Shown piece by piece: positions 18,101-52,384 of a stretch of DNA of 64,000 nucleotides. The notes below the pieces were generated by a model. The model searched no databases. It was not told the DNA's origin and was given only the letters and a program-made list of their open reading frames with translations. Made by a program: the position numbers and the translations under genes. This DNA comes from a virus, in IMG/VR virus record IMGVR_UViG_3300048818_000230, positions 1 to 64,000 of that record. One strand, written 5' to 3'. How positions within the stretch are numbered: the stretch's first letter is position 1; the number at the start of each line of letters is the position of its first letter.

Positions 18101-18408
18101 TCGAAGAGCTGCCAGAGGATTCCGACGTGATCATCGGCGGCGCCGTCATCGAGACGCGCACGACCACTGTCAAGCGCGGCCGGCAGAAAGGCGAGGAGAT
18201 GGCTTTCGTGAAGCTGAGTCTCGATCTCGAGAGCTACAGCATCACGTGCTTCCCCGATGCATGGGCTTCGATGCGGTCTCTGGTTGAGTCTGGCGAGATG
18301 CTGCTGGTACGTGGTCGTTGCGATGATCGTGGCTCGATCATCGCCCAGCGAATGATGAAAATGGACGACTACATTTCCCAAAAAAGAGAACAGGTGGTGG
18401 CTGCATAG
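15178..18408 (+). CDS. dnaE: DNA polymerase III alpha subunit (DnaE-type, PHP domain)
   Basis: PHP LHRHSDASPLDG; palm GPGRGSAAGSLVSYLCGITSIDPL and LPDVDIDFE; 1076 aa. Confidence 0.9.
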   Translation: MMDFCNLHRHSDASPLDGAGTSWQFAERAAEFGQTYLAQTDHATMGGALKHLKACQENGIIPIQGVEAYWRPDRHVRGAEWRYRRWHMVLLATNLKGWHNLIRITSASYVDGFYQNPCVDWELLEQYQEGLICTTACALGPVAYLLENGTDQTVNDFLDRALEIFGDRFFVELMPHDWDRQRSLNLELVSLADCRGIGYYATVDSHYVDADWADTQKIITLIGTNTTVAEAAAKNRERLEHGDEVYELGHEGLHLMSGDEVRERFMRFHPDLGAQVVDRAIATTMDVARMVKPYLMDRALKMPKSVEDPERDIIVWCRQGMERIGKAGDDVYERQLDYELSVIRARKNFSYMWLVGDLVRWAKSDAALPPSEDEPNPQPKKPIRIGPGRGSAAGSLVSYLCGITSIDPLRHKLKFERFLNPERHGLPDVDIDFESVKVDGYNRRPECKEYLVRKHGRGAVADVVSYSTYQPRAAIKDVARIMGIDFKRTEDVIKLIDPVQDSDLEEMCGRIPALYTWSRDFPEAWTHASRLENAGNALVSRMSKHAAGVVIVPGDVVDFMPVVRAAEGEIGYRTAWSETPQISICDDFGFVKIDILGLAGIARQQMAIDSIRELSGEVVDLDALPALRDPYDVDPEVMRVFQDGHTLGLNQFGGGNITSFLRQMRPENIVDLAAANALFRPGPIGSGAPWSYAKRKNGEEEWEVPDQLKDVLGETYGICCFQEQVMEVFQVLAGYSAGRADDVRKIIAKLYREKGDRAKRELRALYEEFEPKARERDMSSEQIADIWAQILPFSGYSFGRGHASGYSCQGYQDAYLKRYYPIHFYAALLTTSNDLALQATREARFFDVGVLPPDINISRPGFTVDYESNALRYGLCSVKGVGDAAAEQVIADRPYASLEDFEQRSSRKYSKVNKGSREKLLQVGALDCFGARITWDPIDRAKAELELLGVALEPGGLLGEDAALIWENVYTEQEIEELPEDSDVIIGGAVIETRTTTVKRGRQKGEEMAFVKLSLDLESYSITCFPDAWASMRSLVESGEMLLVRGRCDDRGSIIAQRMMKMDDYISQKREQVVAA

Positions 18409-20564
18409 TGTCTCCGGTCGATTCGTCCACCCTTGATGATGACCTTCGCGCGATAAACGAGCGTCGCGGTCCTGATTCGATTCGCCGGGGCAACGAGCAA
18501 CCGCCAATTGATCGCATCCCGCTGCTCTCGCCAGCGCTCATGCGGATCACATCTGGTGGTATTCCTCTTGGTCGTGTCACGCGTCTGTGGGGAGATCCCG
18601 GAACCGGCAAGGCTCTGGCTATTGATACTTCGCTTCCTACGCCAACTGGTTGGACGACGATGGGCGATGTGCAGATTGGCGATCAGTTACTTGATGAGCG
18701 TGGCAGACCATGCAGTGTGGTTGGCAAGAGTGACGTGATGTACGACCATGATGTCTATGTGGTCGAGTTTGACGATGGCAGTGAGATTCGTGCCGACGCA
18801 GAACATCGTTGGCTGACGACGACGCGTGCAGCGCGCGTATCTGCTGGCAGGTCCACGGGAGGCGGGTATGGCGGCGTTGGGCGTGCGACATTCCAAGAGT
18901 CGCAGCGCCGTCACTTTCCAGAAGTGGTTACGACTGAGGAGATTGTCGATACGCTGCGGTGCAGTGATGGTCGACTCAATCATTCGGTGGCTGTGGCGGA
19001 GCCACTGCAATTGGCTGAGGATGGTCTTCCGCTCGAACCGTATCTGCTCGGCGTGTGGCTTGGAGATGGGACTCGAGGACAAGGAAACTTCACATCTATG
19101 GACTCTGAGATCGTGGAAGCCTTTAGCCAGCATGGCTTTGTCGTTCGCCAACATTCATATCTTGGTAGCGGCCGTGCTAGACGGTATGGGGTGTTGGGCC
19201 TCGCTGCGCTGCTCAAGCAGGTTGGTGTGTTTGAGCATAAGCACATTCCGCTTTCATACCTACGAGCGTCGGTGTCTCAGCGTTGGGAGTTGCTGCGTGG
19301 ACTGATGGATACGGATGGAACCGTGAGTGTTCATGGCTCCTGTTCGTTCACACAGGCTGATCCGGGCATGATGCGTGGCTTCCGAGAGTTGCTGTCGGGG
19401 TTGGGGTTGAAGAGTTCTCTCGGTTCTACTAAACGACTTGCCATCGGTAGCAAGACATACTTTTCTCAGACTTGTTTCTTCCAGTCACCAGTTCCTCCAT
19501 TCCGTCTCGTTCGGAAGATTGAACGATGGCGAGAGCCGCAGCGAGGTGTTGATAGACATCGCATGATCGTAGGTGTGCATAAGACTAAAAGCCAGCCGGT
19601 GCAGTGCGTTGCGGTGGATTCACCATCGCAACTCTATCTCGCTGGCGAGACTATGATTCCAACTCACAACACGCATGTCGGCTATCTGATCATTGCGGCG
19701 GCCCAGGCAATCCGCAACAAACGCTTCCCGAAGGGGCTCGAGGCTGCTTACTGGAACGTGGAAAAGGTCTGGGACGCTGTCCACGCGAAGAATCTCGGTG
19801 TCGACACGAAGCGGGTGCTCCTAGAGGAGATCACGATTATCGAGGACATTGCGCGTGAGATGGAGCTGCTGCTGCATTCCTGTCACGTGCACGTGCTCGA
19901 CAGTGCTTCGTCGGCGACCTGCATGGACGAACTTGCCGGCGAAGCCGAGGACTGGACGCGCGCGCTCGATGCTCGAGCGTGGAAGCGAGCCATCAGGCGT
20001 ATCGACAACGCGTTGGACAAGGACGAAAATGCCCTGATCATCATCGATCACGCTGCTCGCGATCAGCAAACCAAGCAGGAGTTCGCGCTTGGTGGCAAGG
20101 CGCTCGAGTACCGCTCGTCGATGAGCCTGCACTTTCGCAAAGGATCGTGGCTCTTCTACCACCCCACGAACGGCTACCTCGAGCGCGACGACAAGATCAA
20201 GGGCGAGACCGGAGTCTCTCCGTCAGGCCAGAAGGAAGCCGACGGCATCGAGGTCATCGTGCGCGTCAACAAATCACGCGTTTGCAGGCCATTCCGCGTC
20301 GCTCGTCTCAGGCTCGACCTCAACACCTTCCTCTTCGATACCGCATTCGAGCTGCTCGACGCCGCGACCTTCTTCGACGTCGACGGGAATGCCGCGCATC
20401 GCAGCGGTCAGCCGGCGATCGCTCAGAGATCCGGCGCGAAATCAGCCTGGTATCAGCTCCCCTCCGGCGAGAAGGTCCAAGGCGAGCCTGGGATCCGCAA
20501 GCGCATCGTCGAAGACCCGGAACTCGCCGCGATGATCACGAAGGCGATGCTCGCCGGACAGTAG
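18408..20564 (+). CDS. recA: RecA recombinase interrupted by an intein in the P-loop
   Basis: Exteins align to RecA along their length: GDPGTGK|T Walker A, AKNLGVDTKRVLL, HVLDSASSA, GGKALEYRSSMSLHFRKG, VRVNKSRVCRPF, SAWYQLPSGEKVQGEPG. Confidence 0.85.
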   Translation: MSPVDSSTLDDDLRAINERRGPDSIRRGNEQPPIDRIPLLSPALMRITSGGIPLGRVTRLWGDPGTGKALAIDTSLPTPTGWTTMGDVQIGDQLLDERGRPCSVVGKSDVMYDHDVYVVEFDDGSEIRADAEHRWLTTTRAARVSAGRSTGGGYGGVGRATFQESQRRHFPEVVTTEEIVDTLRCSDGRLNHSVAVAEPLQLAEDGLPLEPYLLGVWLGDGTRGQGNFTSMDSEIVEAFSQHGFVVRQHSYLGSGRARRYGVLGLAALLKQVGVFEHKHIPLSYLRASVSQRWELLRGLMDTDGTVSVHGSCSFTQADPGMMRGFRELLSGLGLKSSLGSTKRLAIGSKTYFSQTCFFQSPVPPFRLVRKIERWREPQRGVDRHRMIVGVHKTKSQPVQCVAVDSPSQLYLAGETMIPTHNTHVGYLIIAAAQAIRNKRFPKGLEAAYWNVEKVWDAVHAKNLGVDTKRVLLEEITIIEDIAREMELLLHSCHVHVLDSASSATCMDELAGEAEDWTRALDARAWKRAIRRIDNALDKDENALIIIDHAARDQQTKQEFALGGKALEYRSSMSLHFRKGSWLFYHPTNGYLERDDKIKGETGVSPSGQKEADGIEVIVRVNKSRVCRPFRVARLRLDLNTFLFDTAFELLDAATFFDVDGNAAHRSGQPAIAQRSGAKSAWYQLPSGEKVQGEPGIRKRIVEDPELAAMITKAMLAGQ
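18612..19670 (+). mobile_element. intein (353 aa), class 3 WCT-type candidate, with a double-motif LAGLIDADG endonuclease
   Basis: Ala1 (ALAIDT), block B AEHRW, block F VQCVAVDS, block G IPTHN then +1 Thr. LAGLIDADG motifs LLGVWLGDG and LRGLMDTDG. Confidence 0.8.
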
Positions 20565-22143: not shown

Positions 22144-22310
22144 GCTTCAAGGGAACATGGCGTATGCACAACGAGGGTCCGATGATCCACCAGCAGACGG
22201 GGCCAAACTCCGTCACGTGGCAGAACGTGCCGGATGAGTACATCGAGGATGACGGTAAACCCTTCGAGGATGGCGAAGAAGTCGAGTTGCTTGTTAGGCG
22301 CGTGCAGTGA
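22140..22310 (+). CDS. hypothetical protein
   Basis: ATGA overlap with the nuclease stop, 56 aa. Confidence 0.35.
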   Translation: MSFKGTWRMHNEGPMIHQQTGPNSVTWQNVPDEYIEDDGKPFEDGEEVELLVRRVQ

Positions 22311-22311
22311 G

Positions 22312-25191
22312 ATGGCAGTAGCCGATCGCGTGTTCCCTCTGACCGAAGACCAAGTCAACACGATCCTCCAAGAGGGGCTGCAGCGCGCGCTCTTGGAGGC
22401 CGACGTTGAGGGAAATCTTCCCGCCGAAGCGAGCGAGCGCATGGCGATGGCACAGACACTCGTCGGCATGGCCGATCTCGCCTACAAAGCAGGCTCACGA
22501 GACGACGATGTGGCGACAGTGCTTTTTATCGCGGAAGTCGGCTACCAAACTCAGATTGTGAAACAGACAGGAGGAGACGACGTGGCAACAGAAATGACGG
22601 CGTTGGGCGACGAAACGCTCATCAAGATTGAGGGTGCCCTGTCGAAGTTGGGCGAAGAGGAAAGCGGCGAAGAGCTTCAGTTCGTGCGAGCCGAGCTCGA
22701 ACGACGCGGACTGCGCCAAGCCGACTCAGGCGCGAGCAATGGTGGTGCACAAGAGCCGGAGGCAGCAGCGGAGGCGCCAGAAGAGGGTGACACCGAACGC
22801 ACAGCGCTCGAGGACCGTCTGACGATTGGCATCATGCGCACGCACGGGATCGACCCGTCGGAGATCTCGAATCTGTCGATGGAGGGGCTGCGGTGGGTCG
22901 TCGAGCATCCTGATGCCCCTGCTGATCAGCCGCATGTGCTGGTCGTAGAACCTACTCCGTCACCAGAGGTCGCTGCAGCGGAGGAACCCGATCCTGGTTA
23001 CATCGAGACAGTGCGGATCCTGCCGGCGCAATCACCCGCGTCAGAGCCTGTGACCGCTCCTGAAGACGACGGCGAGGAAACGATCTCGGCCGAGCGCGAA
23101 GACCTCGAGGGTCGTGTGACAGGACCGATGCTCAAGTGCGTGGCGGTCGGCCAGCGTGTTCTTATGTCTGATGGCTCGAGTCGCGCGATCGAAAATGTGC
23201 GCATCGGTGACGAAGTTCTAAGTTCGGATGGTGTCCGTATTTGCGGCGATGTTGTCTCGGGCTTCTGGCATTCTGGCTACAAGGAGATCGTCCAGATTCG
23301 TCTTGCTGATGGTCGACAGATTCGCGTCAGTAAGGAACATCCAATTTATGGGTGGGACAGATGGGTGGCCGCTGGAGAACTACAGCTTGGTGATGCGATC
23401 TGCGTACCGTCGGTTACCAAGAGTGCTGTAGAGGGTTCGGCAGGCGTATCACTTGACGATGCCTTTTTGCTTGCTCTTTGGCTTGCTGAGGGCCTGAAAA
23501 ACATTACCCGCTACCAAGCGCTGAGATACACCAACGCCGACGATGGCGTTCATGAGCGTGTTGCTCGCATCGCAAACGAACGTGGTTGGGATGTGCCGAC
23601 ATATGCCAACCCGATCAACAGATCGATCATTCGGCGAAAAGGTGCTCCTCTTCTGGAAGGGAGTCCTTTGGAATTCCTACGTGGATACGGAATGAATGGT
23701 CTGGCCGTGGACACGATTCATGTGCCGGAAGCAATCATGCGTTCCAACACGGATGTGATAGCTGAATTTCTCGGTACATATATTTCCTGCGACGGTTGCG
23801 TCCAAATGAATAAGTCTGGGCGCCGGAACGGTGGATTGACGGTCAGTTCTGCGAGCGAGCGCTTAGTGCGAGATTTGCAGATATTGTCCGCGCGTCTAGG
23901 TGTGAGGTCGACTGTTGGCTCGGGGGAATCTCCCAGTCGACGTGGCTATCGAGTTGTATGGTCGTGGTACGTGAACACCATCGACTCGATCAAGGAAATG
24001 AGCAAGGTGGTTGTAGTTCCTGGCAAGCAGCACAAATTCGATGCGATAATGTCGTCAATCGAACTCAAGCGCACCTATGCTTCTCAGCTACCACCAGAGT
24101 TTCGCGATCAGTTCAAGACCAAGTCTCCCAAGCATGGACCTCGTGCTGTCATAGGCACGTGGATTACGCGCGACAAGGCGCTGGCATTGTGTGATCTTCC
24201 TCGTAACAACGTTGTTGCCGAGGGCATACGCGAGCTACTAGATGGTGGTCTTGGTTGGGCACGTGTAGCCGAGATTCGCGATGGAGGGATCGAATATACG
24301 GTTGATCTGGAGACTAGCCAGCATCATGCGTTCTTCTTGGAGGGCGCTTTGACGCACAATTCCTTTGGTCGCGGCCGAAACGATGTCCCTGGTATCGGCG
24401 ACAACGAGCTGCGCTTCATGCTCGAGAACCCCGAGGGTCGCGTGACGAAGGAGCAGCTTCTCGCTGCGCGCGAACTTGACGAGGTAGCAGCCGCTGGTGG
24501 GCCTGCGGTGCAGCGCGAGGAACCCAATCCGAGGCTGGCTGCCATCGAGGAAGCAATCGCCGAGGAAGAGGCGGCTGCTCACGGCGGCCCAGAGGCTGTC
24601 CATCAGCCCGATGGCTTTGCGCCGCCTGTTGCCGAACCAACACCAGTTTTGGAACCGGGCGGTATGAAGAAACTGGTTGAGGAAAAGATTGCGCCAGTAG
24701 ATCTTCATGTGCCCGAGGAGGCCACGCGAGATGCGCGTGAGCACTTCGACGCGCTGATCAAGCGTGAGCATCTTCCGATACCGCCAGACATTGAGGAAGA
24801 GCCACCGCGGCTGCCCTTCGATATGTCGAAATGTTCGGTCGAGGAACTCTACTCACTGCATGCTCGTTTCCACGCTTGTGAGGCGCGGATCTCTTTTCTG
24901 ATCACTAACGAGGAGGACTCTATTGGTGACCTTGAGAAAATGCGCCACGGGCGTGAGGTCGAAGTAGCGAACGAGTTGCCGACGACTATCGATCGCAAGA
25001 GACCTACTGAGGCCCAGCGAACATCTCTGATCGCTGCGGATCCACAGGTCCAGATCTATCTGACTGCCGAGCACAACATCGCAAAAACCTTGAGGAAATT
25101 GAAGGTGCTGCGCGATTCTTATCACAGAGATTGCGAGAGAAGCAGCCGCCAGTTGACGCGTTTCTCACAAGAGTTCGCCGGCACCAAATGA
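22312..25191 (+). CDS. acidic protein of unknown function interrupted by an intein
   Basis: ATG 22312 follows the upstream stop. Exteins are E/D/A/P-rich with a C-terminal coiled-coil-like region. Possible HhH-like VPGIGDNELRFM just after the splice site. Confidence 0.65.
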   Translation: MAVADRVFPLTEDQVNTILQEGLQRALLEADVEGNLPAEASERMAMAQTLVGMADLAYKAGSRDDDVATVLFIAEVGYQTQIVKQTGGDDVATEMTALGDETLIKIEGALSKLGEEESGEELQFVRAELERRGLRQADSGASNGGAQEPEAAAEAPEEGDTERTALEDRLTIGIMRTHGIDPSEISNLSMEGLRWVVEHPDAPADQPHVLVVEPTPSPEVAAAEEPDPGYIETVRILPAQSPASEPVTAPEDDGEETISAEREDLEGRVTGPMLKCVAVGQRVLMSDGSSRAIENVRIGDEVLSSDGVRICGDVVSGFWHSGYKEIVQIRLADGRQIRVSKEHPIYGWDRWVAAGELQLGDAICVPSVTKSAVEGSAGVSLDDAFLLALWLAEGLKNITRYQALRYTNADDGVHERVARIANERGWDVPTYANPINRSIIRRKGAPLLEGSPLEFLRGYGMNGLAVDTIHVPEAIMRSNTDVIAEFLGTYISCDGCVQMNKSGRRNGGLTVSSASERLVRDLQILSARLGVRSTVGSGESPSRRGYRVVWSWYVNTIDSIKEMSKVVVVPGKQHKFDAIMSSIELKRTYASQLPPEFRDQFKTKSPKHGPRAVIGTWITRDKALALCDLPRNNVVAEGIRELLDGGLGWARVAEIRDGGIEYTVDLETSQHHAFFLEGALTHNSFGRGRNDVPGIGDNELRFMLENPEGRVTKEQLLAARELDEVAAAGGPAVQREEPNPRLAAIEEAIAEEEAAAHGGPEAVHQPDGFAPPVAEPTPVLEPGGMKKLVEEKIAPVDLHVPEEATRDAREHFDALIKREHLPIPPDIEEEPPRLPFDMSKCSVEELYSLHARFHACEARISFLITNEEDSIGDLEKMRHGREVEVANELPTTIDRKRPTEAQRTSLIAADPQVQIYLTAEHNIAKTLRKLKVLRDSYHRDCERSSRQLTRFSQEFAGTK
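23137..24360 (+). mobile_element. intein (408 aa), class 1, with a double-motif LAGLIDADG endonuclease
   Basis: Cys1 CVAVGQRVLMSDG, block B VSKEHPIYGW, C-terminal FFLEGALTHN then +1 Ser. LAGLIDADG motifs LLALWLAEG and FLGTYISCDG. Confidence 0.8.
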
Positions 25192-26790: not shown

Positions 26791-27300
26791 ATGGCCGATC
26801 TCCCCGAGACTCGCCCCGATTCTGGCTTCTCGCGAACTGGGTGGACGCCGGAAATGCGCGAGCGCAAGAGAGAGATAGCTTTGCGGCTCGTCGCCGATGG
26901 CAAGTTCGGCGGCGCTGTGGCAGGACGTCTCGGTGGCTACCGCACGCATCAGGCGTATCACCGCAAGGTGCTCATGCAGGAAGCGGTCGCCGAGAATGCT
27001 CGGAAGAACACCCAGGGCATCATCAAAGCGCTCGAGGGGATGCTCAACTCCGGCGACAAGCGGATCCAGCTCGAGGCCATTCGTGAGTACCGCGCCGTCG
27101 AGGACTGGACGCAGAAGAATCTGCGCGAGGAAGAGCGCGAGCTGCGCAACCTCAAGGGAGACGAGCTCGACGACGCGCTGAAGGACGCTCTCGCCTCGGT
27201 GCTTGGCGTCGACCTCGCTCTGCTCGAGTCGATCGATGGCGAGGCCGAGGAGATCGATGAGCAGGGCGAGCTGGTGAGCAGTGTCGACGACAACGAATAG
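26791..27300 (+). CDS. putative terminase small subunit
   Basis: Immediately upstream of and overlapping TerL. Basic N-terminal half, acidic coiled C-terminus. Assigned by position only. Confidence 0.45.
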   Translation: MADLPETRPDSGFSRTGWTPEMRERKREIALRLVADGKFGGAVAGRLGGYRTHQAYHRKVLMQEAVAENARKNTQGIIKALEGMLNSGDKRIQLEAIREYRAVEDWTQKNLREEERELRNLKGDELDDALKDALASVLGVDLALLESIDGEAEEIDEQGELVSSVDDNE

Positions 27301-29164
27301 CCTCGGCATCGACGTAGAAGCGCTCCGTGAGCTTCTGCCGACACTCGACGACGAGGGCAAGCGCCGGCTGCTGAGCAAGATCAACGTTCTTACGAAGGAT
27401 AAGCGTGGAACGCCAGCGGAAGCCGCGCGCCGCATTCCGACGACCGATGATGAACTTCATGCCTTTATCCTGCGGGAGACTGGCTACGACATCCCACGCG
27501 TTGCCGTATGCCCTGATCATCAGGCACCATTTGACTTCGTCGCAGATGCTTTTTTTGAGCGTTATGACGCGCTGTTTCTCTTAGGGTCACGCAGCTTGGG
27601 AAAAACGATCTCAGTCTCTCTAGTGCACTGGGTAAATGCTGAGGTGAGACCGGGCGCGACCGCATGTACGTTCGGCGCTATCGAATCACAGGCAGAGCGT
27701 GCTTACGCTCACGTGAAGTCGTTCGTGTATACGACCGACATGAACGGCCACAAGACACTAAACCCTCAGATGGTCGGTGAACCGCTGCGCAAGAAGACCG
27801 AATGGAAGACTGGTTCGACCATAGAAATTCTGGTTGGGTCGAAGAGCGGCGTGAACTCGCCGCATCCGCATAAGGTGCATGCAGACGAGGTTGACCTCAT
27901 GGACGAGGAAGTTTGGAACGAGAGTAGGTCGATGGCCAGCGGTAGTGTGGTAAATGGAAAGCGCATCGCGGCGCAAAACTTTGCGACCTCTACGCTGAAG
28001 TCAGCTAACGGTCTAGTGGCTAGCATTCTCAAGGAATGCGCGGATTCAGACGAGAAGGGATTTGTTCCTCCTTGGAAAATTTACCGGAGCTGCTGTTTTG
28101 AGAGCGCTGAGGAAGTTCCCAACTGCCAGTGCGCTCCAGAGGATGAACGTAGAGCGCGTCTAACGGAGCTGAATCTGGACCCAGATAGTCGTTGCGAATG
28201 TGACAGAATTGTGAAAGGTGAATGGGGTGAGGACAACCCTCGCACACTCGCCTCGGTATGCAAAGGCAAGTTTTTTCGCTCGCGTGGTTGGATGGTTCAC
28301 AACGACGTGATGCAGAAGTTCATGCAGAACACTCGCATCGTCTGGGACGCGCAGATGGAATGTCGTCGCCCGATGGCTGATGGGCTCTACCTTGAAGGAT
28401 GGGTCAGAGAACGGTTTTGCGTGAAGAATTGGGCGCCGAAGCCTGAGTACGGGAGCGTGTTTACTGCGACTGACTGGGGAGGCGGTGCGGAGAGCGCTGT
28501 CCTTTGGATACAAGGCCCGCTGCGTGTGCCTGTGCAGATTGCCGGAGTTGGTGGTGAACTGGTGACTGTCCCGAAGGGAGCGCACGTTACCTTCGACGAA
28601 TACCTCAAGGCTGGTATCGGAGCAACGAAGCTCGCCGACGAGGTATGCGCCCGAGAGGTCTACTGGCGACGTAGGGTCCAAGGCTTCCGAGTTGCAGCGC
28701 GCTTCGCCGATATGGCAGGGCGCCAGCAACGTGACGATTGGCGTGAGCACACTCCGCCGCTGCGCACCGTCTGGTGGCTCAGCTCGCGTGACTTCGATCC
28801 GCAAGTTGAGTCGCTTCAGGATCTGGTTGGCGACGGCCACTACTGGGTGGACATCGATCGTTGCTCTCGTCATTGCGACGATATCGAGTCCTGGAGACAG
28901 AAAAATGGTAGAGAAATTCACGACGCCTCGAGCCATTCCTGCGCTGCGGCGCGCTACGGCCATGCGTCGATAGTTTCGCGCGAGTTGCGGCGAGGTAACA
29001 GGGAGCAAAGCAGAGCTGTGGATCCGGTGGTTGTCCAACGCGGTGAAGCTAGCGCACCGTCCGCTATGGCTCACGCCGGTGATGGTTTTGATGGCGAGCG
29101 CCGTTGGCGTGAGCAGGTAGGGCAATACTTCCCCGATAGGAGCCCAGGCCCATGGCAACGATAA
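27281..29164 (+). CDS. terL: terminase large subunit
   Basis: Walker A LLGSRSLGKT, Walker B KVHADEVDLMDE, C-terminal nuclease-like region. Followed by the portal gene. Confidence 0.85.
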   Translation: MSTTTNSLGIDVEALRELLPTLDDEGKRRLLSKINVLTKDKRGTPAEAARRIPTTDDELHAFILRETGYDIPRVAVCPDHQAPFDFVADAFFERYDALFLLGSRSLGKTISVSLVHWVNAEVRPGATACTFGAIESQAERAYAHVKSFVYTTDMNGHKTLNPQMVGEPLRKKTEWKTGSTIEILVGSKSGVNSPHPHKVHADEVDLMDEEVWNESRSMASGSVVNGKRIAAQNFATSTLKSANGLVASILKECADSDEKGFVPPWKIYRSCCFESAEEVPNCQCAPEDERRARLTELNLDPDSRCECDRIVKGEWGEDNPRTLASVCKGKFFRSRGWMVHNDVMQKFMQNTRIVWDAQMECRRPMADGLYLEGWVRERFCVKNWAPKPEYGSVFTATDWGGGAESAVLWIQGPLRVPVQIAGVGGELVTVPKGAHVTFDEYLKAGIGATKLADEVCAREVYWRRRVQGFRVAARFADMAGRQQRDDWREHTPPLRTVWWLSSRDFDPQVESLQDLVGDGHYWVDIDRCSRHCDDIESWRQKNGREIHDASSHSCAAARYGHASIVSRELRRGNREQSRAVDPVVVQRGEASAPSAMAHAGDGFDGERRWREQVGQYFPDRSPGPWQR

Positions 29165-32100
29165 GCGTTGGCGATCTTGCATCGTTGGATCCGGTTCTCA
29201 CGCAGGCGACGGAAGGTCCATCGCCGACGCAGGAGAAGGTCATCGAGGCCACGAACGCCGTGGGCATCAAGACTCGTGTGGCGGAAGCTGCGGCAGCAGG
29301 CCCGACGACGCGGCAGCGTACACAGTCAGAGATTCTCGACCTCGAACTCGTCCGCTGGCGTCGCAACGATCCCTTCAGCGTTCGCCATATCCCCTTCGAT
29401 CAGCTCCGCGAGATGACCACCGATCTGATGCTGGGATTCGGGTGGTTCTTTACGGTCGCACCGTTGTGTCGTGCGGATTGGTTGATCGAATGTCCAGACG
29501 CGCAATTGGCAGCGGCTGTGGATGCAGCTTTCAGGCCAATCTCCACTGCGACGTATCTGAACTTCTCCAACGTTCTGTGGTATGGGCATCAGCCGCTCGT
29601 CAAGCGCTTCAAGCTAGCAAAGCTAGGCGGGTATTACCGCGACCCGCAGGCTGCGGATCCAAGCAAGGACATCCCGATTTGGACATCGAGTGCAGATGCT
29701 CTCTTGTGGAAGACACCGATGGCGGTCAATCCATCCCACTGTCTTCCGATGTGGGACGACGACGGCGACATGATTGGTTTCAAGTTCTCCACTCTCCCGA
29801 TCCCAAACTTCGATCTGATCAGCGCTGCTAGCGCGTACGGCTACATGGTCATTTCGGGAAGTGTCATCGACGATGATTACGCTCTGTGGCCAACGAATGA
29901 GGCTGAGTTGAACTTCGGATCCATCTACGGTTCACCGAGAACGAAGCGTGCATATCGCTACTGGTGGTGTAACCCGCCTGAGACTCCGATCCTTATGAGC
30001 GACTATACGCTACGTCCGCTCGGCAGCATTGAGGAGGGCGACGAGATCATCGGTTGGGAGCCAAAGATGGGCCGACGTGCATCTGGTTTGTATGCGCCTC
30101 GTGTTTGCATGACAAAGTCCATAGTCACAGCCGTGTCGAAGCGTGCAAAGCAAAAGATGGTCAAGGTTACGTTCGAGTCGGGCCATGTGATTCGCTGTAC
30201 TCCGAATCATGTCTGGAATCTGCATCCAACTGCTCAGAATAATGTCAGGCCAGGTAGGGATTCGGAGTGGGGGGTTGTCGAGGTTGGTCGCGAGATCAGT
30301 CGAGTCATTGATCTTCATGCCGGCGAACGTCCCTTCATCTACGAAGCTCTTGATGAGGAACAACAGATCGCTGCCAATTGGCTTGGGGGGCTGTATGACG
30401 GTGAAGGAAGTGGTGCTTTCATCGGACAATCAGAAAGTCACAATGGCCCTGTTCGCGAGCGCATGAAAGAATCATTGGACCTGCTGGGCTTTCAATACAC
30501 GTGTAATCCAGATTCATTCTGGATCAAGGGCGGCCGTGAAGAGTTGATGCGATTCGCTCGCCTCACACGTCCTACTCGCGTTTATGCGATGGATCGTCTT
30601 ATCATCGACAACAATAGTGCCAGCGGTGGTGGGTTTCGTTTTCGTCGCCCAGACAAGATCGTTTCCATCGAGCCTGACGGCGAGGATGTGGCGATTGGTC
30701 TTACGACAACTACGGGAAATTACATAGCGTGGGGTCTTGCGTCGAAGAACTCATACTGGTATCGCTGGGCTCTTGCCGATCGCGCGTTCGAGAACCACGT
30801 CGATCCGGCTAAGATCGTCTACTACCCAACTGACTTTGAAGAGTTCCTCGACAGCGAAGACAACCCGACCAATCAGATTACTCTGGCGCGCGAGAAGGCC
30901 ATCAGGCTTGGCGAAGCCACACGCTCAGGAGCTACGATTGCACTGCCTGCAGACTTCATCGAAGGGCCGGATGGTAAGCCAACTTCTGCCCGCAAATGGG
31001 AGATCACTCCGTACGCCTCGGGCCAGCAGCACTTCTCAGATCTCGATCAGACCTTCGCGCACCTCGACACGCTGAAGCTGCGGGCGTGGTTGATTCCTGA
31101 GCAGGCCTTCATCGAGGGAAGAGGGGCCTGTCTCCTAAAGACGACTCTGATACTAGCACCTCGAGATCACGATCTCTACCCAGACGGCATCCCCATGGAA
31201 GAGCTCAAGGATGGCCAGCTCGTCTGGTCCTATAACGAGCACGAAGCGCGCTTCCAACTGTGGCCCATCAAGGAAGTCGGCCCCACGAAGACGGACGATG
31301 TCTTCAAGCTCACGCTCGATAACGGTCAGACGATCACGGGGACTGCTGATCATCCCTTCATGCGTCGTGATGGTCGCTGGACAACGCTCGCGCTACTGAA
31401 GCCCGGCGACTCGCTGATGCCACTCTACGAGAAGATCGATCATGAGAAGCAGTACAACGGAAAGCCGATCAAGGAAGGCGATTCAGAGCCGTGGATTGCG
31501 GTTGGCCCCGGAAAGATCTACACGCCTGAGTTCAGGGCGGTGGGAGATCATTTTGGTTGGACGCGTCAGGGCCAAGGATTTGGCATCCATCACAAGGACG
31601 AACGTCACGCCAACTCGTCGATCGAGAATCTCGTCTTTCTGACTAACGGCGCACATACGGCTGAGCACTTCAAGAATCCTGAGTTCGCAGCTCGTCACAG
31701 CGAACTTGGTTCTGCTGCGATGGCTGAGTTCCAAGCTGGGAATACGCCTGTGGAGAATTTCGAGTTCGCTTCTGCGCGATCTCAGAAGGGCTGGGACAAC
31801 GGACGCACGAAGCAGCGCTGGAAGGACAAGGCTTGCGCGACGTGCGGGACGATGTTCACGCCGAATTCTGCACGCCAGAAGTATTGCGCGGATCACTCGG
31901 CGAAGATCCAGAAGAACGAAGCCACTCCGTATCAGGGGCGCATCAAGACGCCGCGGCCGTACAAGCTGAAGGACTGCATCGATTGCGGCAACGCTTTCTA
32001 TCCGACGAGTGGCGTGCAGAAGCGCTGCGAGGAATGCCAGGTCGCCTACAAGAAGAACTTCTCGCGCGACCGCAGGCTCGCCGAGATCTCTGATAACGCT

Positions 32101-33684
32101 CCCAACAACCACAAGGTCGTCTCAGTCGAGTACGCCGGCGTCGCAGAGGTCTGGGATATCATCATGGATGCTCCGGCGCACTGCAAGAACTATGTCGCCG
32201 AGGGCGTCGTCGTCCACAACACTTCGAGCCGCCTGATCGCCACTCAGCTCGGCGAGGTCTACCAAGAGTCTCAGCAGTTGCTGCTTGACGGCTGGGATGC
32301 CTATGTATCCGAGCACATGTTCCCGCAGTTCATCGCGGCGAACTTCCCGGAGAAGATTGGCACTCCCTGTCGGCGTGTCTCGAGCGGTCTCGGCGCGATC
32401 GACGAGCAGCTTCGCCAAACCGTGCTGACGTTGATCGGTCAGGTTCGAGGCAACGTGCTGCCTGTCGATATGCGCACGTTGCTGGCGCAGAGCGGAATCC
32501 CGCTGCTCAACGAGGCGCAGATGCGCCAGGAAATGAAGAACATCGCTGAGCTTTCGGCCGCCACAGGACCACCCGTTACTCCTCCTTCTGGGCAGGGACT
32601 CCAGGGTTACAACGCCGGTGTCGAACGCGTTGGCGTCGTGCGCACGCCGATGGGCGAGTCCCGTTATGAGACTCGTTACTTCCAACCGCCGCAGAGGATC
32701 CTTCTGGCCGAGTCCGATGGCTTCATGAATGAGCTGCCAGACACTCCCCACTACCGCGATGCCGGAGTACGCTCGGCGATCGTGCGGCTACGGAGGCTTT
32801 TCGTCGAGCGCTACAGCGATCAGTACGCCTCGTTCGCGAAGTTCTTGGAGGCTCAGCCAACCCTTCATCTCGCTGACGCTACGCAGCCGCAGGGCGTCTC
32901 TCAGGGCAACGCCAAGACAGCAGCAGCCGCGATCATCGCTGCGTGGGCTGCTGCGAATGCTCCTGGTGTCGTCGGCTCTCCGATCGAGGCGATCGGGACC
33001 GCAGGATCGACGGCGGCGAAGATGTCAGACCTCATCGGCAAGATCGGGCTCGCTGGTGGTGTCGGCGCACTGAAGGGAGCTCGACTCGACGCTGAGGACT
33101 TCGGCGCCGGCGTCTTGAAGCCGTGGGTGCAGCAGCGAGTCGGTAGCTCGCTCTCTTCGATCGACGATACCGTGCGTTCAGAAGCACAGAACTGGCTCGA
33201 GGATCAGCTCCAGCAGAGCGTGGATCCGCGCGCGGTAGCTGCTGCAGCCAAAGAGCACTTCGCTGATTTTCCGGCTACCCATGCTGATCGTGTGGCTCGT
33301 ACGGAAGTCCGCGATGCCTACAATCGCGGCACGCTCGAGGCTCTTCATCTCGCCGGCGTCGAACAGGTCCAGGCTCACGATGCTTCCGATGGCTCGAACG
33401 AGTTGACCGACGCTGAATGTCTGGCCAGAGACGGCAAGATCATGGGCGTGCAAGACGCGATGAGCGCTGATGAACACCCGAATGGGACGCTGTGGTTCAG
33501 CCCGCTCTCGACTGATCATCTGCGCGTCGAGCGCGTCGACGAGCTGCCGCTGCACCTCGACCAGAACGGTGCTCAGGTTGCCTACGACTCGCGCGAAGAG
33601 ATCCTCTACCTCCTGAGCGACGTCGACGCTGAGCATGAACGCATGTATCTGCTCATGCTGGGCGACCAGATCAGCTATCGCTGA
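29152..33684 (+). CDS. portal protein (Mu gp29/DUF935-like) fused to a MuF-like head morphogenesis domain, interrupted by two inteins
   Basis: Follows TerL. Extein is 885 aa after removing the inteins. C-terminal HADRVARTEVRDAYNRG...ECLARDGKIM...HPNG resembles the Phage_Mu_F domain. Confidence 0.75.
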   Translation: MATISVGDLASLDPVLTQATEGPSPTQEKVIEATNAVGIKTRVAEAAAAGPTTRQRTQSEILDLELVRWRRNDPFSVRHIPFDQLREMTTDLMLGFGWFFTVAPLCRADWLIECPDAQLAAAVDAAFRPISTATYLNFSNVLWYGHQPLVKRFKLAKLGGYYRDPQAADPSKDIPIWTSSADALLWKTPMAVNPSHCLPMWDDDGDMIGFKFSTLPIPNFDLISAASAYGYMVISGSVIDDDYALWPTNEAELNFGSIYGSPRTKRAYRYWWCNPPETPILMSDYTLRPLGSIEEGDEIIGWEPKMGRRASGLYAPRVCMTKSIVTAVSKRAKQKMVKVTFESGHVIRCTPNHVWNLHPTAQNNVRPGRDSEWGVVEVGREISRVIDLHAGERPFIYEALDEEQQIAANWLGGLYDGEGSGAFIGQSESHNGPVRERMKESLDLLGFQYTCNPDSFWIKGGREELMRFARLTRPTRVYAMDRLIIDNNSASGGGFRFRRPDKIVSIEPDGEDVAIGLTTTTGNYIAWGLASKNSYWYRWALADRAFENHVDPAKIVYYPTDFEEFLDSEDNPTNQITLAREKAIRLGEATRSGATIALPADFIEGPDGKPTSARKWEITPYASGQQHFSDLDQTFAHLDTLKLRAWLIPEQAFIEGRGACLLKTTLILAPRDHDLYPDGIPMEELKDGQLVWSYNEHEARFQLWPIKEVGPTKTDDVFKLTLDNGQTITGTADHPFMRRDGRWTTLALLKPGDSLMPLYEKIDHEKQYNGKPIKEGDSEPWIAVGPGKIYTPEFRAVGDHFGWTRQGQGFGIHHKDERHANSSIENLVFLTNGAHTAEHFKNPEFAARHSELGSAAMAEFQAGNTPVENFEFASARSQKGWDNGRTKQRWKDKACATCGTMFTPNSARQKYCADHSAKIQKNEATPYQGRIKTPRPYKLKDCIDCGNAFYPTSGVQKRCEECQVAYKKNFSRDRRLAEISDNAPNNHKVVSVEYAGVAEVWDIIMDAPAHCKNYVAEGVVVHNTSSRLIATQLGEVYQESQQLLLDGWDAYVSEHMFPQFIAANFPEKIGTPCRRVSSGLGAIDEQLRQTVLTLIGQVRGNVLPVDMRTLLAQSGIPLLNEAQMRQEMKNIAELSAATGPPVTPPSGQGLQGYNAGVERVGVVRTPMGESRYETRYFQPPQRILLAESDGFMNELPDTPHYRDAGVRSAIVRLRRLFVERYSDQYASFAKFLEAQPTLHLADATQPQGVSQGNAKTAAAAIIAAWAAANAPGVVGSPIEAIGTAGSTAAKMSDLIGKIGLAGGVGALKGARLDAEDFGAGVLKPWVQQRVGSSLSSIDDTVRSEAQNWLEDQLQQSVDPRAVAAAAKEHFADFPATHADRVARTEVRDAYNRGTLEALHLAGVEQVQAHDASDGSNELTDAECLARDGKIMGVQDAMSADEHPNGTLWFSPLSTDHLRVERVDELPLHLDQNGAQVAYDSREEILYLLSDVDAEHERMYLLMLGDQISYR
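29968..30750 (+). mobile_element. intein 1 in portal (261 aa), single LAGLIDADG-like motif, penultimate Lys
   Basis: CNPPETPILMSDYT (block A), RCTPNHVW (block B), WLGGLYDGEGS, DVAIGLTTTTGNYIAWGLASKN then +1 Ser. Confidence 0.7.
31129..32220 (+). mobile_element. intein 2 in portal (364 aa) carrying an HNH endonuclease and Cys4 zinc-ribbon repeats
   Basis: CLLKTTLILA, GTADHPFM (block B), GIHHKDERHANSSIENLVFLTNGAHTAEH (HNH), CATCG...CADH and CIDCG...CEEC, EGVVVHN then +1 Thr. Confidence 0.8.
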
Positions 33685-52237: not shown

Positions 52238-52323
52238 ACCGCGATGTAGTTCGGTCGCACGATTCGGACTTCCTTGGGTGGTTTTGCTTTTGTGCGCATC
52301 GTCTCGTCTCTCTGTTTGGACTT

Positions 52324-52384
52324 GGCATCGTCAGACGCGGGCAGTCAATCCCGCGCGACGCCGCATAAGCGGCGTTTCGCCTAT
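52324..52384 (-). ncRNA. type II hammerhead ribozyme candidate HH-1 (one extra U after A9)
   Basis: AGGC-GAA-ACGCCGC-UUAU-GCGGCGU-C(52357)-GCGCGGG-AUUGACUG-CCCGCGU-CUGACGA-U-GCC, read on the minus strand. Confidence 0.55.

Follow-up and report, generated by a model that had tools for sequence, protein, structure and literature searches.

The analysed stretch of DNA, referred to here as the window, comprises 64,000 nucleotides (nt) of an uncultured phage (positions 1 to 64,000 of IMG/VR record IMGVR_UViG_3300048818_000230). Positions 18612-19670 very probably encode a class 3 intein of full length, in which a LAGLIDADG homing endonuclease is nested; the intein lies in the P-loop of a divergent RecA/UvsX-like recombinase, appears to have been acquired horizontally and, judging from its homologues, is expected to splice. 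A first-pass annotation of the same DNA had proposed a class 3 intein that interrupts the Walker A motif of a phage RecA, reading GDPGTGK, a 353-amino-acid (aa) insert and T, and had considered this location unusual. Comparison with homologous proteins, solved intein structures and large sequence collections upholds the identification of the intein and its boundaries, but not the supposed rarity of its insertion site.

Precursor gene and insert boundaries

The RecA-family recombinase precursor gene (18408-20564 including the stop codon, plus strand; recognized by Pfam RecA and PHROG 97) encodes 718 aa in an ORF (open reading frame) of 2157 nt without interruption. Its start codon, GTG, overlaps with TAG, the stop codon of the DnaE-like polymerase gene lying upstream. 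Three segments follow one another on the plus strand: an N-extein of 68 aa (18408-18611) that ends in the Walker A residues GDPGTGK, with Lys68 invariant in the alignment of homologues; the class 3 intein of 353 aa (18612-19670; ALAIDT...IPTHN), delimited by alignments, family conservation and an AlphaFold2 (AF2) model; and a C-extein of 297 aa plus stop (19671-20564) whose first residue, Thr+1, completes GDPGTGKT according to the homologue alignment and in-silico splicing. The translation of 18612-19670 is exactly 353 aa (ALAIDTSLPTPTGWTTMG...LYLAGETMIPTHN), preceded by WGDPGTGK and followed by THVGYL. Within it, Ala1 is encoded by GCT at 18612-18614, His65 at 18804-18806, Trp67 at 18810-18812, Cys332 at 19605-19607, Thr351 at 19662-19664, His352 at 19665-19667 and Asn353 at 19668-19670; the Walker A Thr (Thr+1, ACG) follows at 19671-19673.

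In-silico excision of the 353 residues restores GDPGTGKT and leaves a 365-aa protein that is collinear with 116 RecA-family (PF00154) homologues retrieved from a collection of 5.8 billion proteins, an insert at the P-loop position being absent from all 116. The top homologue (P0001) is likewise 365 aa long and is 87% identical to the spliced protein. When nine insert-free homologues are aligned with the precursor, the gap spans precisely 353 residues, from the invariant Lys68 to the next Thr/Ser. Pfam RecA recognizes a C-terminal fragment of the precursor (residues 442-580, 57.8 bits), while its match to the spliced protein is contiguous (PF00154, residues 9-227 on profile positions 3-222, 77.7 bits versus a cut-off of 27). 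Because the homologues show this gap and the Pfam RecA match becomes contiguous after excision, the boundaries are exact, and both the split of Walker A and its position between Lys and Thr stand as first proposed.

Overlapping ORFs of 155, 84, 88 and 159 aa on the opposite strand or in other frames of the intein were dismissed as spurious, having no credible Pfam match and lying in GC-rich DNA. Rfam and tRNA scans gave no match in or near the precursor gene.

Class 3 splicing signature

The intein begins with Ala, at a position set by the gap in the homologue alignment, and thus has no Cys, Ser or Thr nucleophile at residue 1. It is clearly homologous to the solved DnaBi1 intein of Mycobacterium smegmatis (Msm; 6bs8; phmmer E 3.9e-30), with no gaps across blocks A and B or across blocks F and G, and to the M. 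chimaera DnaBi1 mini-inteins 6rix and 6riy (E 9e-29 and 5e-28). The N-terminal lobe of the HINT domain (blocks A and B, about aa 1-100, 18612-18911), which carries Ala1, Asp62, His65 and Trp67 and is modelled by AF2 as beta-strands, aligns ungapped on residues 1-82 of 6bs8, and in the C-terminal lobe (blocks F and G, aa 311-353, 19542-19670) aa 319-353 align ungapped on residues 105-139. Asp62, His65, Trp67, Cys332, Thr351, His352 and Asn353 thereby fall on D62, H65, W67, C118, T137, H138 and N139 of 6bs8, the residues of the catalytic centre and of the Trp-Cys-Thr (WCT) triplet being those named for Msm DnaBi1 in PMC6195587.

The three triplet positions can be followed individually. Trp67 (block B position 12) stands two residues past the block B His65, and the segment His65-Arg66-Trp67 (18804-18812) lies ungapped on H65-Q66-W67 of 6bs8. 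Cys332, at block F position 4 (19605-19607), is the predicted initiating nucleophile; its counterparts in the alignments are Cys118 in Msm DnaBi1 and Cys320 in the mycobacteriophage Bethlehem prototype. Block G reads Thr351-His352-Asn353 (19662-19670). The Bethlehem intein, numbered as in PMC2807308, aligns with the window intein from end to end at 32% identity (BLASTP E 1e-50); His65 and Trp67 bear the same numbers in both, C320 coincides with C332, and T339-H340-N341 with T351-H352-N353.

These positions are strictly conserved in the family. His65, Trp67, Cys332, Thr351, His352 and Asn353 are invariant in a 63-sequence intein alignment, and the same six positions read HWCTHN in 283 of 283 full-length intein relatives. 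In 281 of these relatives residue 1 is neither Cys nor Ser, 226 having Ala there; Thr or Ser occupies the +1 position in 281, and Gly-Lys precedes the intein in 215. Under the class 3 definition of Tori et al. 2010, every sequence-level feature is present, and the splicing route would follow by homology. That the insert is an intein is confirmed by its matches to 6bs8 and Bethlehem and by the exact gap in insert-free homologues; Ala1, the WCT triplet and Thr+1, predicted at the outset to mark it as class 3, occupy positions equivalent to those of both reference inteins, with W, C and T unshifted.

Ala1 by itself would also fit a class 2 intein, in which Thr+1 would attack directly, as in KlbA-like inteins, and Cys332 would have a purely structural or coordinating role; the residue at block F position 4 is indeed coordinating in inteins of classes 1 and 2 too (PMC2807308). 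However, class 2 inteins by definition lack the WCT triplet (PMC2807308), which is complete here. Cys320 is absolutely required in the homologous Bethlehem intein (PMC2807308), Cys118 is the initiating nucleophile in Msm DnaBi1 (PMC6195587), and the homology of the window intein to both is strong. A non-class-3 route of this kind is therefore exceedingly improbable, and initiation by Cys332 is the favoured reading.

Fold and endonuclease domain

The AF2 model of the intein is highly confident, with a predicted local distance difference test score (pLDDT) of 94.7 and a predicted TM-score (pTM) of 0.92. A Foldseek search with this model recovered PI-SceI (E 1.5e-21, query TM-score 0.78), the class 3 mini-inteins (target TM-scores 0.80-0.85) and I-DmoI. 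As modelled, the splicing-domain fold, combined with a precise in-frame insertion in a conserved host protein, places the element among the HINT-fold inteins.

Between the two HINT lobes lies a LAGLIDADG homing endonuclease domain (about aa 101-310, 18912-19541, plus strand), recognized by Pfam LAGLIDADG_3 (33.4 bits versus a cut-off of 22.5, E 5.4e-8), by the Foldseek match to PI-SceI and by the alpha/beta elements of the AF2 model. Both LAGLIDADG motifs reported by the first-pass annotation are present in sequence and alignment. Motif 1 (block C) is LLGVWLGDGT at aa 145-154 (19044-19073), with Asp152, and motif 2 (block E) is LLRGLMDTDGT at aa 227-237 (19290-19322), with Asp233 and Asp235. 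In the 63-sequence alignment, Y144, G147, W149, L150 and G151 are invariant around motif 1 and D152 is at least 90% conserved; in motif 2 the same holds for G230, D233 and G236 (invariant) and for D235 (at least 90%). By its sequence, the endonuclease domain looks intact.

Insertion site and its occurrence in other RecA proteins

The intein sits between Lys68 and the Thr of GxxxxGK/T, where the P-loop of the ATPase core ends. The view that a P-loop site is unusual for a RecA intein does not hold. Five RecA/RadA intein insertion points, a to e, are described in PMC4513877, point c being the P-loop; there, c1 is assigned to archaeal RadA and c2 to RecA of Escherichia coli, Enterobacter, Salmonella and Thermobifida fusca, and the K/T position had thus already been known as c1 and c2 among RecA intein alleles. 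The P-loop is in fact the commonest intein site, and insertion between Lys and Thr has been termed the 'classic' P-loop insertion (PMC5050341); the majority of class 3 inteins known in 2009 were already located in P-loops (PMC2807308).

Public data contain many class 3 inteins at the P-loop of RecA. An exhaustive HMMER search with the precursor found them at the same K/T or K/S junction in an actinobacterial-type cellular RecA (P0357) and in a RecA-like protein (P0335). A follow-up search with P0357 revealed two unrelated intein families at the identical RecA P-loop site in soil actinomycetes, counted here as clusters at 90% identity, the counts being lower bounds. The class 3 type occurs in at least 57 clusters of actinobacterial RecA, as GPEGSGK/ALALDTPIPTPKGWTTMG...THN/TT (ALALDT...), with a modal length of 391 aa; the class 1 type occurs in at least 51 clusters, as GPESSGK/CLTADTYVW...SHN/TT, with a modal length of 430 aa. 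BLASTP of the window intein against the class 1 CLTADTYVW family gave no match. Matches to a degenerate DNA pattern of this class 3 junction were present in 12 species-representative metagenome-assembled genomes (MAGs) of actinomycetes. The class 3 intein family as a whole is very large, with thousands of members, and mostly located in P-loops.

No paper describing class 3 inteins in actinomycete RecA P-loops was found. The published 'E. coli RecA intein' was likewise not recovered: among 5,415 complete E. coli genomes having a recA match, the gene is uninterrupted in 5,413, and one of the two exceptions is DH5alpha, with a 27% partial recA match. Several of the actinobacterial RecA proteins (among P0385-P0503) are 1030-1280 aa long, which leaves room for a second intein elsewhere in RecA.

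Origin and mobility

The GC content at third codon positions (GC3) is 0.527 in the intein versus 0.743 in the exteins. None of 166 equal-length in-frame control windows taken from nine other genes of the window has so low a value (minimum 0.589, mean 0.741). The closest relative (L001) lacks the intein and shares 80% DNA identity over the extein, and an intein at the P-loop is absent from 13 of 13 full-length IMG/VR relatives. Because its distribution is sporadic and its codon composition foreign, the sequence suggests that the intein was acquired horizontally from a large pool of P-loop-targeting class 3 inteins.

The 204-nt N-extein (18408-18611) has a GC3 of 0.56, near the 0.53 of the intein and unlike the 0.79 of the C-extein. 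This could be a co-conversion tract from a homing donor, or short-segment noise.

The inteins nearest to it share 43-49% identity and occupy DnaB, terminase, MCM and further ATPases; its identity to the class 3 inteins residing in RecA is 33-41%. An origin from the host's own RecA class 3 inteins is rejected on this comparison, and since RecA-resident class 3 inteins are less similar than those in other ATPases, an independent invasion from the general class 3 pool is indicated. A more specific account, in which a P-loop-targeting class 3 intein recently jumped across families into a phage recombinase family otherwise without P-loop inteins, draws on the single genotype, the foreign GC3, the location of the nearest relatives in DnaB, terminase and MCM rather than RecA, and the presence of two further clear inteins and one candidate in this genome; it is considered unlikely but not negligible. 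Provided that the endonuclease accepts the coding sequence of Walker A, which is short and conserved, the window phage and L001 would form a natural pair for studying class 3 movement between non-orthologous ATPases.

The same pair might further reveal whether phage recombination comes under conditional control by a P-loop intein. Oxidation inhibits DnaBi1 reversibly by way of a Cys48-Cys118 disulfide (PMC6195587), and the window intein has four cysteines besides Cys332 (C34, C117, C244 and C288), which would suit a conditional switch, operating for example by redox or metal through Cys332 and keeping the recombinase inactive until particular infection conditions. However, Cys48 of DnaBi1 is not kept, the residue here being Val48, and the patchy occurrence and foreign GC3 suggest a selfish element that invaded recently rather than a co-adapted regulator. 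A regulatory role of this type is very improbable.

Several points weigh against the reading of the element as a horizontally acquired, splicing-competent class 3 intein in a phage RecA. Its low GC3 could stem in part from relaxed codon selection rather than foreign origin. A single phage genotype is known, and purifying selection on the intein is not measurable from identical DNA. The intein-free allele of L001 differs from the homing target of the window at several bases near the site. By sequence, the 'RecA' is a RecA-family, UvsX-like protein only, without orthology to the RecA of bacteria. Homology predicts splicing, the branched intermediate and endonuclease activity, a point that would also suit an intein recently inactivated and no longer splicing, with the RecA-like gene a protein-level pseudogene that is tolerated, as phage recombinases are often dispensable.

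Such an inactivated remnant would also agree with the presence of the intein in one genotype only, next to 116 homologues and 13 IMG/VR relatives that lack it, and a WCT-like intein pseudogene, Arth_1007, is on record (PMC3196547). Against it, His65, Trp67, Cys332, Thr351, His352, Asn353 and Thr+1 are all intact, and the 2157-nt ORF is unbroken. Both exteins are complete, with 87% identity to an intein-free homologue, and retain the columns conserved in the RecA family. The AF2 model is highly confident, and the identical sequence occurs in at least three independent samples or assemblies. Recent inactivation is accordingly quite improbable, and a functional class 3 intein remains the preferred interpretation.

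Proposed splicing and homing mechanism

The proposed steps are taken over from work on the Bethlehem and M. smegmatis DnaBi1 inteins. The 718-aa precursor, with its P-loop split, is predicted to lack ATPase and strand-exchange activity because Walker A is interrupted until splicing; the precursor of a P-loop RadA intein is ATPase-inactive according to PMC4513877, cited in PMC6195587. The thiol of Cys332 in block F would attack the Lys68-Ala1 bond, aided by His65 and Trp67, giving a branched intermediate with a block F thioester. The N-extein would then move to the hydroxyl of Thr+1, forming a block G branched ester, after which cyclization of Asn353, with help from His352, would release the 353-aa intein. 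A final O-to-N acyl shift would restore GDPGTGKT in an active recombinase of 365 aa.

The endonuclease probably cuts the intein-free recA of co-infecting related phages at the P-loop codons, the predicted site being GGAGATCCCGGAACCGGCAAG/ACGCATGTCGGCTATCTGATC, and repair of the cut would copy the intein into the recipient (homing). With an endonuclease domain that looks intact, the intein could plausibly home into alleles lacking it during co-infection.

Host recombinase and phage genome

The host protein is best described, from its sequence, as a divergent phage RecA-family (UvsX-like) recombinase. The precursor matches PHROG 97 (UvsX-like recombinase) and scores 61 bits with the NCBIfam RecA equivalog TIGR02012, far below the cut-off of 325.3, this value being that of the precursor and not of the spliced form. 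The extein is about 25% identical to RecA/UvsX-like proteins of cultured phages. The initial assignment of the interrupted gene to the RecA family, and of the genome to a phage-like entity, holds. The window carries a phage replication module, which encodes an SF2 (superfamily 2) helicase, DnaB, primase, a PolIII-alpha/DnaE-like polymerase, the RecA-like protein and a Cas4-like exonuclease; a gene farther downstream encodes a large protein that weakly matches portal and Mu F-like families.

Relatives of the extein are found on IMG/VR viral contigs of about 67-98 kb. The intein-bearing protein itself was found in three sources, on contigs about 83-95 kb long, and the DNA is identical in L002, L003 and the window, which thus represent one genotype, obtained from at least three independent samples or assemblies. 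The phage is about 95 kb in size. Megablast of the precursor gene against 50,697 GenBank phage records yielded no match, and the phage is therefore uncultured or undeposited. Tblastn of the full precursor against the same records produced no match covering at least 80% of it. The best partial candidate, H103 (MT835760), was rejected: its 841-aa P-loop protein has a long N-terminal region and is without RecA-like flanks. It carries a class 3 P-loop intein (GTGK/ALTLDS...THN/T).

Among the homologues found in this phage RecA family, the window genotype is the only carrier of a P-loop intein. What is new here is modest, namely a P-loop intein in a phage RecA-like gene, without equivalent in the 50,697 GenBank phage records. 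With it, the hosts of class 3 P-loop inteins come to include a phage RecA-like recombinase. It agrees with the view of phages as reservoirs and vehicles for these inteins, and it leaves knowledge of intein classes, mechanisms and insertion sites unchanged. The matched alleles, intein-containing in the window and intein-free in L001, occur in related phages of about 95 kb and could serve work on homing and splicing. For annotation, the 718-aa 'RecA/RadA recombinase' should be read as a precursor with a mature product of 365 aa.

Other inteins and elements in the window and its relatives

The same genome contains two further clear inteins and one candidate, all on the plus strand. A class 1 intein of 408 aa (23137-24360; LK/CVAVGQRV...EGALTHN/SFGRG) lies in ORF 22234-25191, with Pfam Intein_splicing and LAGLIDADG_3 matches above cut-off; its GC3 is 0.53, the 565-aa L001 orthologue lacks exactly this intein, and the host protein has no family assignment. 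Another class 1 intein, of 364 aa (31129-32220; GRGA/CLLKTT...EGVVVHN/TSSRL; Pfam Intein_splicing, 51 bits), lies in ORF 29152-33684, and its central insert shows weak HNH (PHROG) and zinc-ribbon matches and no LAGLIDADG. The 1510-aa product of this ORF has weak C-terminal matches to portal, head-morphogenesis and Mu F-like families. The same ORF contains the weak candidate, of 261 aa (29968-30750; RYWW/CNPPETP...AWGLASKN/SYWYRW; Pfam Intein_splicing E 0.013), which has a LAGLIDADG-like motif, LGGLYDGEGS, and a GC3 of 0.53 versus about 0.67-0.71 in its flanks.

Intein presence or absence differs gene by gene between the window phage and L001. A 990-aa gene of L001 (12345-15317) has an Intein_splicing match and corresponds in position to window ORF 27281-29164, which encodes 627 aa with no family match and no intein; the two are paired by position. 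The L001 gene probably encodes a terminase, as judged from its position and without a supporting family match.

Another member of the same phage RecA family, L019 (IMG/VR UViG_3300044838_000061; protein P0242), has a 55% identical extein and an intact P-loop, and carries a class 1 intein at VRVNK/CVSGDT...LLTGN/SRVCRPF. This position (VNK/C...GN/SRVCRPF) corresponds to the site a region of M. tuberculosis RecA.

A type II hammerhead ribozyme motif (Hammerhead_II) is present on the minus strand at 52315-52382, as a full-length Rfam match (45.2 bits versus a gathering threshold of 37, E 5e-6).

Comparison with known systems

The Bethlehem 'DnaB' intein (MP-Be DnaB; 341 aa, located at gp11 residues 141-481, AY500153 7260-9971) resembles the window intein in being full-length and phage-borne, with a LAGLIDADG domain, a non-nucleophilic residue 1 and Thr+1. 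It differs in its host protein, since gp11, whose gene adjoins the portal gene, is annotated as 'hypothetical protein' and is not RecA. Identity between the two is limited to 32%, and block B position 7 is Ser62 in Bethlehem but Asp62 in the window intein.

The DnaBi1 inteins of M. smegmatis and M. chimaera (6bs8, 6rix and 6riy) are the best solved relatives, with about 60% identity in blocks A and B. They share the DxxH motif of block B (Asp62), the WCT triplet at the same positions, the P-loop location after Lys and Ser or Thr at +1. In contrast to the window intein, they are mini-inteins that have lost the endonuclease and reside in a cellular DnaB helicase, and Msm Cys48 is replaced by Val48 in the window intein.

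With the RecA/RadA inteins at point c (Topilina et al. 2015; PMC4513877), the window intein shares the host superfamily and the location at the end of the P-loop; the published c2 inteins are given there as 422 aa. At point c1, the RadA intein of Pyrococcus horikoshii differs in being unrelated in sequence to the window intein. It is a class 1 mini-intein that begins with Cys1.

The class 3 inteins of actinomycete RecA (for example P0357 and P0385-P0449; MAGs of Streptosporangiaceae and 'uncultured Actinomycetes') share with the window intein their class, the K/T site and the LAGLIDADG organization. They differ from it in their host, which is a bona fide cellular RecA and not a divergent phage recombinase.

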